IMG/VR virus record: IMGVR_UViG_3300025767_000004
From: an uncultured virus (IMG/VR IMGVR_UViG_3300025767_000004)
Lineage: Duplodnaviria > Heunggongvirae > Uroviricota > Caudoviricetes
Direction: 5' to 3' (one strand)
Length of the DNA stretch: 64,000 bases
Shown one piece after another: positions 119 to 60,540 of this stretch. A program made the translations under genes and the position numbers. Position 1 is the first letter of the stretch, and every line of letters begins with the position of its first letter. The notes under the pieces were generated by a model. That model searched no databases, was not told where the DNA came from, and saw only the letters and a program-made list of their open reading frames with translations.

Positions 119-218
119 TTATGGGGGCGACTTGGAATTGATTGGCAGGGTCAGTTATACAGGGCACGTAGTGAGATGTTTCCTATCACTTAAATCTATG
201 GTGACAATTTTTTTAGAC

Positions 219-284
219 GGCAACGTTTACAACGAGATGGCAATGTTCGGCTTAGTAGCTGACGAAGCTATCGTTAACGCATAA
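219..284 (+). other. tmRNA tag reading frame (A)GNVYNEMAMFGLVADEAIVNA*
   Basis: Resume codon inferred at GGC after TTAGAC; 21 codons ending Ala then tandem stops TAA TAG. Confidence 0.65.
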
Positions 285-523
285 TAGTTATGGAGTTAAC
301 AGTAACCCACTCCGAGAGTCGGTTACATCGGGTCGGTCAGGACATTAACCTAGGAACAGAAGTCCGTTGTTGTGGTGGAAAAACGATTGAACCCAAACTC
401 GAATCGTCCATTGGTTGTCAGGTTTACGATGGTGAAGAACAGACTGACTATTTCGGAATATTGCGAATTAATATTGACCTAAACGTGTAGTCCTTTATAG
501 GTGGACTGAACAAGACCCGGGTT

Positions 524-748
524 TGATTGGGGACCCACTCAGTAGTAATATTGAGTTAAAAATCGGATGAATTGCTGGAACGCTAAGTCGGAAACGATAA
601 GCCAATCAGCAGCCAAGCTTAAGATACATCTTAAGAAGGTTCAGAGACTAGTGGAGAAGTAGAGTCTTCTTAATAACCACATTAGCGTCCGACATCTCAT
701 TGAGATGATGATATAGTCCGTACAGTGTAGAAATACATTGAGTATACG
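524..748 (+). ncRNA. Group I self-splicing intron (ORF-less, with P7.1 insertion, IA-like) in the tmRNA T-loop
   Basis: P1 exon GGGUU/GGACCC with U.G at the 5' splice site; P3 TCGGATG(563-569)/CGTCCGA(686-692); P4 TGCTG/CAGCA; P7 GACTA(646-650)/TAGTC(714-718); R TCAGAGACTA and S GATATAGTCC; P9 with GAAA tetraloop; terminal G748. Confidence 0.92.
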
Positions 749-774
749 CGAAACCCGGCACCTCCACCATTAAT

Positions 775-810
775 GGGAGAAGAAGGATAAAACCATCTTC
801 TCCCTTTTTT
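775..810 (+). terminator. Intrinsic terminator after tmRNA
   Basis: GGGAGAAGA...TCTTCTCCC stem followed by T-run. Confidence 0.8.
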
Positions 811-1027
811 CTTTTAGTTCTTTAGTGTACTTACCATTTCTAGGTGTTAACTTAAGATAGTTTTCTTCTACTATGTTTTTTCTATGTATTTTTTTAGGGT
901 GAAAGCTTTCGATATTGGTGATGACTGATAAACCACTCCTTAATTGGGGTGGTTTTTTTATTATAGAACGTCTATACTTTCTTCCCCTTTTTCATATACT
1001 TTTTACTCTAAATATTTATACTTTAAT

Positions 1028-59729: not shown

Positions 59730-60540
59730 ATTGAACGCTGAGACTACACGTCTATGTGATTCGTCTTTAGGTGGTGTACCTCAATGATGAGTTGCCATCC
59801 TGTCCACCATACTTTAGTATAGTATCGAATCAGTGTCGGTTATTTACGTGAACCACTCGTTTCGTTGAACAACTACTCAACTACAAAATTAAACTATCGA
59901 ATCTTGCGGACTCACTAAGGGCTGACCACCCACTAATTTTATCGTAATCGACATCGGAAGACTTGCGGTCTTACGAAGACTTCATTAATCCTATGGACCT
60001 GAAGTATTAGACACCTTTCGTTGTCAACGCCTGAAGTCTTTTGCTTGTATCTATCTTATAATAGTAGCAAAATGTGAGTTAAGTAAAGATGTGCTTCAGG
60101 AGAAGGTTCATTCCTTTTGGGAAAGAAATACTTCACACCTTTATGTAAGTCTGTCAACCTACGGTATTTCAGGACTACGTTTACTTTAACGTATCGGTAA
60201 CCCTTAATACTGGTACTCAGCCCTACAATATCTGACAGGATATGTCGAACCGTCACCTGTGGTTTATCCTATTGGTATCACTACCTCAACTTCGAAATCT
60301 CACAAATTCAAAGTATCTTCTTTCCCTCAACAGTTGTCCTCAGGAAATTAGACGTTACCACTTTGTTTAGTTGTCAGAGTTAAACTCTGCGGGTTTCCAA
60401 TAGATACTACTCTACCTTCTACCCCTTTAGTCCTGTTGCCAGGTTTATCTAACGACGCTAAACCGCCAATTTGATTATATATTTACACTTTTTAAAGGGG
60501 GTTAATCCATCAACAAAATATTGATATAATCAAACTAATA
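59730..60540 (-). ncRNA. Large structured RNA, GOLLD-like
   Basis: ~800 nt, GC-richer than flanks, no credible ORF, many hairpins with GNRA loops; 3' part GAAACGAGTGG..TAACCGACACTG..GGTGGA..TAAAGA..GTGTAGTCTCAGC recalls GOLLD; own promoters and terminator. Confidence 0.7.

Follow-up and report, generated by a model that had tools for sequence, protein, structure and literature searches.

Can a transfer-messenger RNA (tmRNA) gene whose tRNA-like domain is broken in two on the DNA still yield a tmRNA, and how might such a break have arisen? The question is raised by positions 123-769 (+ strand) of a 64-kb stretch of DNA from an uncultured virus (IMG/VR record IMGVR_UViG_3300025767_000004), the whole of which is referred to here as the window. 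Read from the sequence, 123-769 is a split tmRNA (ssrA) gene of 647 bp. The results described below support its identification as a phage-borne tmRNA gene that is split in the T-loop by a group I intron lacking an open reading frame (ORF). The reading that we favor, with a probability of roughly 80%, is that 123-769 is the intron-form tmRNA gene of what is probably a large marine phage and that its intron is a mobile one, which was aided by a nuclease and is now probably fixed.

Gene anatomy and intron boundaries

The tmRNA gene begins 27 nt past the stop codon of an upstream ORF. Exon 1 contains the 5' acceptor strand GGGGGCG, pseudoknot 1, the tag reading frame, the downstream pseudoknot region, and the 3' strand of the long helix P2. 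It ends with the 5' strand of the T-stem (CCGGG at 517-521), followed by the first two T-loop bases (522-523). Exon 2 holds the last five T-loop bases (CGAAA), the 3' strand of the T-stem (CCCGG), the 3' acceptor strand (CACCTCC), the discriminator A, and an encoded CCA. A T-arm with a 5-bp stem (CCGGG/CCCGG) and a 7-base loop (UUCGAAA) forms only once 524-748 is removed. An earlier note on this DNA, made from the sequence alone, had stated that the tRNA-like domain is complete only without this segment, and this was borne out.

Natural alleles were found that locate the boundaries exactly. A scan of viral contigs with the 21-mer that makes up exon 2 returned four contigs (loci L001 to L004). 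In three of them (L001-L003) the gene is uninterrupted, and two T's run directly into CGAAA across the predicted junction (alignment A1). The tmRNA of L001-L003 scores 82.5 bits on the Rfam tmRNA model RF00023 (cut-off, 47 bits) over model positions 1-374, and a further intron-less relative (L032) scores 81.3 bits. The fourth locus, L004, has an intron at the identical position, with 100.7 bits on the group I intron model RF00028. The bounds are placed at 524 and 748 because only the exact removal of these bases reproduces the L001-L003 sequence. Thus, the coordinates and anatomy given in the earlier note were correct, and the survey that it had suggested for intron-less alleles in related phages provided their confirmation.

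Structure of the intron

The match to RF00028 extends over 514-740 and takes in the whole model (positions 1-253 of 253; E value, 9.4e-25; cut-off, 50 bits; score in Table 1). Helices were assigned from the Rfam alignment and by hand. P1 (519-524 with 531-536) places the pair U523·G532 at the 5' splice site. The other helices are P2 (538-543 with 550-555), P3 (563-569 with 686-692), P4 (573-578 with 606-611), P5 (582-590 with 595-602, closed by a GAAA loop), P6 (612-624 with 629-640), P7 (646-650 with 714-718), P8 (693-698 with 702-707), and P9 (723-729 with 734-740, also with a GAAA loop); P3 and P7 make up the pseudoknot of the core. An additional hairpin, P7.1, lies at 651-680 between P7 and P3'. 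Hairpins in this position are typical of group I subgroup IA, and by this feature the window intron is IA-like. The last intron base is G748. No ORF of more than 40 aa overlaps the intron.

Comparison with related introns supports this fold. When 10 distinct introns of phage tmRNAs were aligned and their 12 helices (67 pairs) compared, 93.9% of the paired cells could pair, versus 34-44% when the partners were slid. Both sides have changed at 21 pairs, versus 2-9 with slid partners, and none of 500 shuffles matched the observed covariation score. The compensatory changes sit in P2, P4, P6, the P7.1 hairpin, and P9; P3, P7, and P8 are nearly invariant and carry little weight by themselves. All 10 aligned introns have the U·G pair at the splice site, and of 10 distinct related introns, nine end in G. 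The remaining one, in the intron-form phage tmRNA of L120 (336-576, in a locus of just 615 nt), ends in A before the 3' exon. The minimum free energy fold recovers most of the helices (z = -5.28). These results are in agreement with the earlier description of a full group I core comprising P1 with its U·G pair, P3, P4, P7, P7.1, P8, P9, and a terminal G.

Table 1. Features of the split tmRNA gene and its immediate surroundings in the window
Feature	Position	Strand	Evidence or details
tmRNA exon 1	123..523	+	86.9% identity over 401 nt to L001-L003; alignment A1
Tag reading frame	219..284	+	Resume codon GGC 219-221, 21 codons GNVYNEMAMFGLVADEAIVNA, TAA 282-284, second stop TAG 285-287
Group I intron, 225 nt, ORF-less	524..748	+	RF00028, 100.2 bits; missing from L001-L003 at these bounds
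tmRNA exon 2	749..769	+	Same 21-mer ends intron-less L001-L003 and intron-form L004
LAGLIDADG homing endonuclease stump, free-standing	770..937 (last 55 codons 773-937, stop 770-772)	-	tblastn; DNA alignment A3
Hairpin plus six T, putative tmRNA terminator	775..810 (775-786 with 793-804)	+	Read from sequence; inside nuclease-stump coding stretch
Second terminator-like hairpin	930..955	+	Terminator scan; alignments A1 and A3

Intron-form and intron-less genes in related phages

Viral contigs were scanned with a motif of 15 bases from the 3' portion of exon 1, which retrieved at least 121 loci; these were read with a T-arm and acceptor parser that accepts only stems with 5/5 pairs. Among these listed loci, 93 are uninterrupted, 11 have the intron form, and 17 were assigned to neither (chance matches or variant arms). 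Among the matches listed, roughly a tenth of the phage tmRNA loci are of the intron form, and intron-form genes are found on 12 distinct viral contigs when L004 is counted and the window is not. A 23-mer from the 5' end of the gene had no match in the viral contigs, and hence the window itself is absent from that collection. Intron-form and intron-less alleles both occur among related contigs.

The intron follows the second loop U in the window, L004, L010, L026/L100, L087, L110, and L120 and the first loop U in L028/L092, L089, and L071/L090. For each intron-form allele resolved by the parser, the T-stem halves that flank the intron are complementary, which is partly by construction, given the 5/5 rule. 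Across the family the T-stem varies by compensatory changes, with five variants observed (CCGGG/CCCGG, GCGGG/CCCGC, CGGGG/CCCCG, GAGGG/CCCTC, and ACGGG/CCCGT). Between the window and L010 the intron is 92% identical and exon 1 is 73% identical; between the window and L004 the corresponding values are 94% and 82%. Conservation of the intron far beyond that of the gene that hosts it points to lateral movement.

Several other features of the family were observed. On one viral contig two tmRNA 3' domains lie about 620 nt apart (L105/L106), and in L080 a second partial T-arm with an acceptor-like stretch follows the first. Tandem genes, or "ghost" ends that have been displaced, may account for these doublets. 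In the 60 nt upstream of the family genes, many have TAnnTTTG-like motifs 25-40 nt before the mature 5' end, and such a motif lies within the last 30 nt in 16 of 52 unique upstream regions. TAnnTTTG is the -7 promoter box of the Bacteroidota, and these motifs would be a hint of hosts from that phylum. A conserved GTTCTTTGAAAT leader also precedes many family genes; the window has the leader without the TAnnTTTG box. Several family members, including L010, lack an encoded CCA end, and directly after the tmRNA gene of L004 there is a gene for a tRNA nucleotidyltransferase of the CCA-adding type (L004:1327-2070, + strand). A search with a degenerate tag pattern found nine loci, four of which were already known; the other five (L127 and L129-L132) had no blastn match to exon 1 and were dropped.

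A LAGLIDADG nuclease gene beside the tmRNA gene

The earlier note recorded no homing endonuclease. This holds for the inside of the intron. Just downstream, however, the other strand carries a free-standing LAGLIDADG endonuclease gene reduced to a stump, which is convergent with the tmRNA gene and has its stop codon directly against the CCA end. Its 55 codons are 72.7% identical over 55 aa to a 137-aa ORF of L010 (tblastn, window 937-773; E value, 3e-22). That ORF, of 137 codons and likewise on the opposite strand, scores 33.6 bits for the Pfam family LAGLIDADG_3 and 24.8 bits for LAGLIDADG_1 (cut-offs, 22.5 and 23.1). The stump frame is open and has no start codon, and the N-terminal part with the LAGLIDADG motif is gone, so that what stands beside the window tmRNA gene is not an intact endonuclease gene.

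When the L010 protein was used as the query, relatives of the ORF turned up in another viral contig (L167) and in seven other metagenome contigs (L170-L176), and in each of these the nuclease gene adjoins the tmRNA 3' end. The nuclease is full length in L010, L167, and L170-L175; the L176 copy runs off the contig end. The intron of L170 is of the window type. A different intron lineage occupies this subsite in L172 and L173, and the introns of L167, L174, L175, and L176 are at the other subsite, so that three or more intron lineages, at two subsites, are represented among the nuclease-linked contigs. With the window included and the query source L010 left out, eight of nine contigs with the nuclease or its stump have intron-form tmRNA genes, versus a background of 11 of 104 listed matches (Fisher p = 1.2e-6, a value that overstates independence because the contigs are related). 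The LAGLIDADG protein had no match in the contigs behind L103, L002, L004, L071, and L110. The link between this nuclease family and intron-form tmRNA genes is an association between sequences, and it would be the part of these results most worth an experiment. The earlier note had also suggested that the intron may hide a site commonly used for integrase or nuclease targeting. The stump gives the nuclease part of that suggestion some substance; the integrase part found no support.

The putative terminator hairpin at 775-810, directly after the tmRNA 3' end, is also present in L010, L103/L168, L167, and L170-L176, although it was not among the calls of a consensus terminator scan. The intron-less L103/L168 keeps the terminal hairpin only. 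The second hairpin is homologous to the one that stands directly after the CCA in L001-L003 and L004. In the window, by comparison with L001, this hairpin is separated from the CCA end by about 150 additional bases (773-922).

Endonuclease genes of a second, HNH-like family (phrog_3322, "endonuclease") adjoin the intron-form genes of L026 (400-942, - strand), L028 (1577-2158, - strand), and L071 (1574-2101, - strand); those of L028 and L071 are 60% identical. Homologues of phrog_3322 also lie beside 3 of 61 intron-less loci (L050, L075, and L083) and 1 of 15 loci not assigned to either form (L074). A count in which four of four intron-form loci had a neighboring nuclease, among 80 loci with full flanks, was discarded as evidence because the queries came from those loci and the result arose by construction.

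Independent DNA sequences

The stretch is present in many marine and seawater metagenome runs and in six metatranscriptomes; the runs that were compared consisted of contigs rather than reads. One independent DNA run (X2) covers 60-860 fully, and one of its contigs spans 487-860, including both splice sites, with zero differences. X2 also contains short contigs that run from 480-523 straight into exon-2-like sequence, which indicates that a related intron-less allele exists as DNA in the same water.

These contigs bear on whether the split gene is an artefact or a fragment, either an assembly chimera or a partial tmRNA copy left at the attachment site of an integrating element. The window is a metagenome-type record, and tmRNA genes are common integration sites (PMC11915505). 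On the other hand, no part of the gene is missing between the 5' acceptor strand and the CCA, the X2 contig crosses both splice sites, and L004, L010, L170, and others have the same intron in the same place. An artefact or fragment is therefore highly improbable.

Evidence against an intron-form gene that can still mature

A number of observations weigh against the favored reading and are considered together here. The first concerns the standard gene finders. On the raw window, RF00023 gave no match even at E values up to 10. ARAGORN found no tRNA or tmRNA, and at its 95% threshold it made no calls on the entire raw 64-kb sequence. To this extent, the earlier warning that standard callers may miss the gene proved justified. 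With default settings ARAGORN also reported no tmRNA on the form spliced in silico, for which six splice variants were tried; with the -ps option (95% threshold) it reported a tmRNA at 123-523 plus 749-769 on spliced forms only. However, default ARAGORN found nothing on L001-L004 either, despite the Rfam score of the intron-less L001-L003. Because it also misses the intron-less relatives, the failure belongs to a divergent tmRNA family and not to the splice.

The RNA libraries yielded nothing across the junction. Contigs from RNA libraries of three studies, one from each, match exon 1 at identities of at least 99% (X15, 131-503; X16, 171-504; X18, 134-484), with ends at 503, 504, and 484, and none lies on the intron, on the flanks, or across the junction. 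At most, these exon-1-only contigs are a weak hint of a stable exon 1 RNA without the intron; DNA carry-over is possible, and they are not evidence of splicing. Even a joined form would not by itself prove splicing, given the intron-less allele present as DNA in X2.

The acceptor stem is imperfect. GGGGGCG pairs with CACCTCC, which is followed by ACCA, at six of seven positions, including G3·U70, a pair that is present in all 61 unique full-length family genes. The mismatch, C6·A67, is the sole acceptor mismatch among those 61 genes, where pair 6:67 is U-A in 55, C-G in 5, and C·A in the window only; the 5'-end search behind this count retained genes with at least 6/7 acceptor pairs, and 41 resolved loci gave no 5' end in their flank. 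The base is real, because C128 was confirmed by a contig over 60-160 in X2. The possibility that the mismatch is a scar of co-conversion during intron homing was considered and rejected, because L001 has one base different there and a point change explains this equally well. A point change would be the simplest account.

The nuclease association is also not uniform. In L171 a full-length nuclease stands beside an intron-less tmRNA gene, and the intron-form L004 has no nuclease in its available flanking stretch. The L171 T-stem is unusual (GGCGG/CCGCC) and could be a target variant that resists cleavage.

Several of these observations would be expected if the gene were a decaying relic whose intron no longer splices or whose spliced RNA is a poor substrate. 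The unique acceptor mismatch, the reduction of the adjoining LAGLIDADG gene to 55 codons, the rejection of the spliced form by default ARAGORN, and the lack of a junction contig among the RNA-library contigs could all be read in this way. However, the intron retains all of its core helices, the splice-site U·G, and its terminal G, its identity to the L004 and L010 introns is 92-94%, and the T-stem halves are still complementary. The tag frame is intact and encodes the same protein as that of L001, and exon 1 sequence, not that of the flanks, recurs in the RNA libraries of three studies. Intact intron-less relatives are missed by default ARAGORN as well. The tmRNA database tolerates one acceptor mismatch and rejects two or more (PMC11915505), so the single mismatch of the window gene is within its tolerance. 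Thus, decay is unlikely, and an intron-form gene that can still mature is the preferred explanation.

The tag and its partner protein raise a different possibility. The resume codon was placed via the RF00023 alignment of L001. The tag proposed by ARAGORN -ps, ADEAIVNA, is shorter and in the same frame. Tags of the family (L001-L084) have about 21 residues and follow the pattern G-N/D-V-x-x-x-M/L-x-x-x-G-L ... V/N-A. The usual end of a tmRNA tag is Leu-Ala-Ala, and the window tag ends otherwise. No SmpB gene was found among the 52 window ORFs scanned. The tag end and the lack of an SmpB gene among these ORFs, like the observations above, count against the favored reading. The spliced RNA could have a non-canonical function, other than the marking of proteins for proteolysis, as a decoy that titrates host SmpB, as a competitor of the host tmRNA, or as a tagger whose peptide has a role of its own. 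The SmpB result would fit such a function. The conserved 21-residue family tag is about twice the length of the most frequent bacterial tag, which has about 10 residues (PMC11915505). There is also a phage precedent, in that the tmRNA of phage DS6A, which consists of a tRNA-like domain only, is reported to inhibit the host tmRNA (PMC4131195, PMC11915505). Yet the 21-codon frame is retained in relatives at about 75-87% nucleotide identity of exon 1, and L004 differs from the window by four synonymous third-position changes within the first 13 codons. That the tag frame, the resume context, and the double stop are preserved with synonymous changes, apparently by coding constraint, makes a translated tag more plausible than a pure decoy, and the relatives score over the entire RF00023 model. 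A non-canonical function is quite improbable. It concerns events downstream of maturation and would be compatible with the gene anatomy described here.

Relation to known systems

The first intron-form tmRNA was reportedly found in Clostridium botulinum. The earlier note regarded such cases as rare, which is outdated: PMC11915505 (2025) describes 883 unique intron-form tmRNA sequences from 21 phyla. All of them are interrupted in the T-loop, at four subsites, of which internucleotide position 7 is the main one and positions 8, 2, and 3 are the others. Position 3 is reported from the class Bacteroidia only and position 2 from Anaerolineae plus one member of the Myxococcota. The numbering in which position 1 precedes the first loop base fits because the same source states that each T-loop subsite offers a U at -1; if that numbering applies, the window intron is at subsite 3, between loop bases 2 and 3. 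Acceptance by the tmRNA_intron model of that work required a score of 150 bits or more and a gene length of 500 bp or more, and according to the same source Rfam has no model for intron-form tmRNA.

The window gene resembles the bacterial intron-form genes in having a T-loop group I intron, a U at -1 paired with G in P1, a terminal G, and, like most of them, no ORF in the intron (PMC11915505). It differs in that the bacterial genes are chromosomal, whereas the window gene is in a phage-like genome. It also differs in that the bacterial nuclease genes are inside the intron (a LAGLIDADG gene in 23 of 844, in P7.1 or after P9; PMC11915505), whereas that of the window is outside the tmRNA gene.

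Related introns were sought in bacteria. In 185,579 species genomes, a strict 31-base intron pattern had no match, and a looser core pattern matched 31 loci. One of these (L151), on a 3.1-Mb contig of a metagenome-assembled genome of the Bacteroidales, is a tmRNA gene with an intron after the second loop U (RF00023, 113.8 bits; RF00028, 90.2 bits), and this intron has the core motifs of the window intron. In four Lentibacillus species the core motif is in a protein-coding gene. The other 26 loci (from the set L135-L165), as judged by eye, are tRNA genes, mostly of marine Gammaproteobacteria, interrupted in anticodon loops and with CAU anticodons. These tRNA introns have the same core but occupy an anticodon loop, in contrast to the window intron, which is in the T-loop of a tmRNA, a molecule without an anticodon loop.

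Phage-encoded tmRNAs are known from the mycobacteriophage Bxz1 group, Bacillus phage G, and DS6A (PMC4131195) and from huge phages (PMC7162821). Like these, the window has its own ssrA, and no SmpB gene is seen in the available stretch. Unlike it, the reported phage tmRNAs are described without introns in the available parts of the sources; the word "intron" occurs 0 times in that of PMC4131195, and none is mentioned in that of PMC7162821. The tmRNAs of PMC7162821 were assigned by ARAGORN, which is blind to the window gene. The only phage case named in the available part of PMC11915505 is the DS6A tmRNA, and the word "Phage" has 0 occurrences in the available part of its supplement, the full sequence lists of which may include phage-derived entries. 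A literature search for phage intron-form tmRNAs found no report, and the phage setting of an intron-form tmRNA appears to be unpublished. In blastn searches cultured phages matched the intron core only and not the exons.

The psbA intron of cyanophage S-PM2 is said to move by "collaborative homing," in which an ORF-less intron is partnered by a neighboring free-standing endonuclease. The core of the window intron is 72.8% identical to the S-PM2 psbA intron over about 160 nt. In both systems the intron is ORF-less, the endonuclease gene lies next to the gene that is interrupted and not within the intron, and both allele forms circulate in related phages. They differ in that the interrupted gene of the window is for a structured RNA rather than a protein. 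They differ also in that the nuclease of the window family is of the LAGLIDADG type and is encoded convergently, its stop codon adjoining the CCA end; in the window no more than a stump of it is left. None of the three components (the gene form, a phage tmRNA, an intron-nuclease partnership) is new in itself, and the present results overturn nothing. What is specific to the window is the LAGLIDADG stump against the CCA end together with the single acceptor mismatch.

Nature of the window

The window has few hallmark genes, and most of its ORFs have no match. Those with matches include a T4-type RNA ligase 1, a thymidylate-kinase-like protein, a member of a "minor coat protein" family, a GlmS-like protein, and sugar-modifying enzymes. 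No capsid or terminase gene was recognized in the 64 kb. Megablast of positions 1-25000 against cultured phages gave no match, and tblastn with the GlmS-like protein gave 40-45% identical matches in unrelated phages only, with no close cultured phage. Other IMG/VR contigs, the longest of which measures 281 kb, carry members of the same tmRNA family and the nuclease. The window is probably from an uncultured, large marine phage.

Other genes and an RNA element were noted in the same stretch. Between 14553 and 63954, auxiliary genes are abundant; their matches comprise an APS-kinase-like protein, four 2OG-Fe(II) oxygenases, methyltransferases, and an M42 peptidase, with further matches to a dTDP-sugar epimerase, a UDP-glucose dehydrogenase, and a sulfotransferase. 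A full-length GOLLD RNA lies at 59735-60143 (- strand; RF02032, 244.8 bits; cut-off, 150). A 3' fragment of GOLLD (92.9 bits), cut by the locus end, is also present at L026:1-105, about 1 kb from an intron-form tmRNA gene.

Proposed maturation and spread, and their implications

From this anatomy we infer the following course, in which the activities of the RNA (self-splicing, charging, and tagging) and the part played by the nuclease are all predictions. Transcription of the precursor would continue to the hairpin and its run of T's at 775-810. The intron would then fold, with P1 pairing the last exon bases to an internal guide so that U523·G532 marks the splice site, and it would be excised with the aid of free guanosine, joining U523 to C749. 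Joining alone would rebuild the T-loop UUCGAAA and the CCGGG/CCCGG stem and would bring the acceptor 3' strand and the CCA to the T-arm. RNase P would trim the 5' end at G123, and alanyl-tRNA synthetase would charge the RNA via G3·U70. With host SmpB, the RNA could then enter stalled ribosomes and add the tag, (A)GNVYNEMAMFGLVADEAIVNA. If the intron does splice, it follows from the anatomy that splicing would gate tmRNA maturation.

The mobile intron would have spread among phage tmRNA alleles, probably helped by the free-standing LAGLIDADG endonuclease encoded tail to tail with the tmRNA gene. Because the nuclease gene of the window is only a C-terminal stump, the intron is probably now fixed in place. 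A more specific scenario is offered tentatively, as somewhat short of an even chance. In it, the tail-to-tail LAGLIDADG enzyme cuts the intron-less T-arms of co-infecting phages, and the introns at subsites 2 and 3 spread by breaking the target of the enzyme. The window would be the end state of this process, with a fixed intron, a nuclease stump, and an acceptor mismatch, and phages would be a possible source of the bacterial introns at subsites 2 and 3.

Censuses of phage tmRNAs made with ARAGORN or RF00023 will miss the window gene and its intron-form relatives. The stump of the window and the full-length nuclease genes of its relatives provide a testable case of an ORF-less intron that may travel with a neighboring nuclease in a gene for a structured RNA. 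In phages such as this one, rescue of ribosomes by the phage's own tmRNA would depend on an RNA-splicing step.

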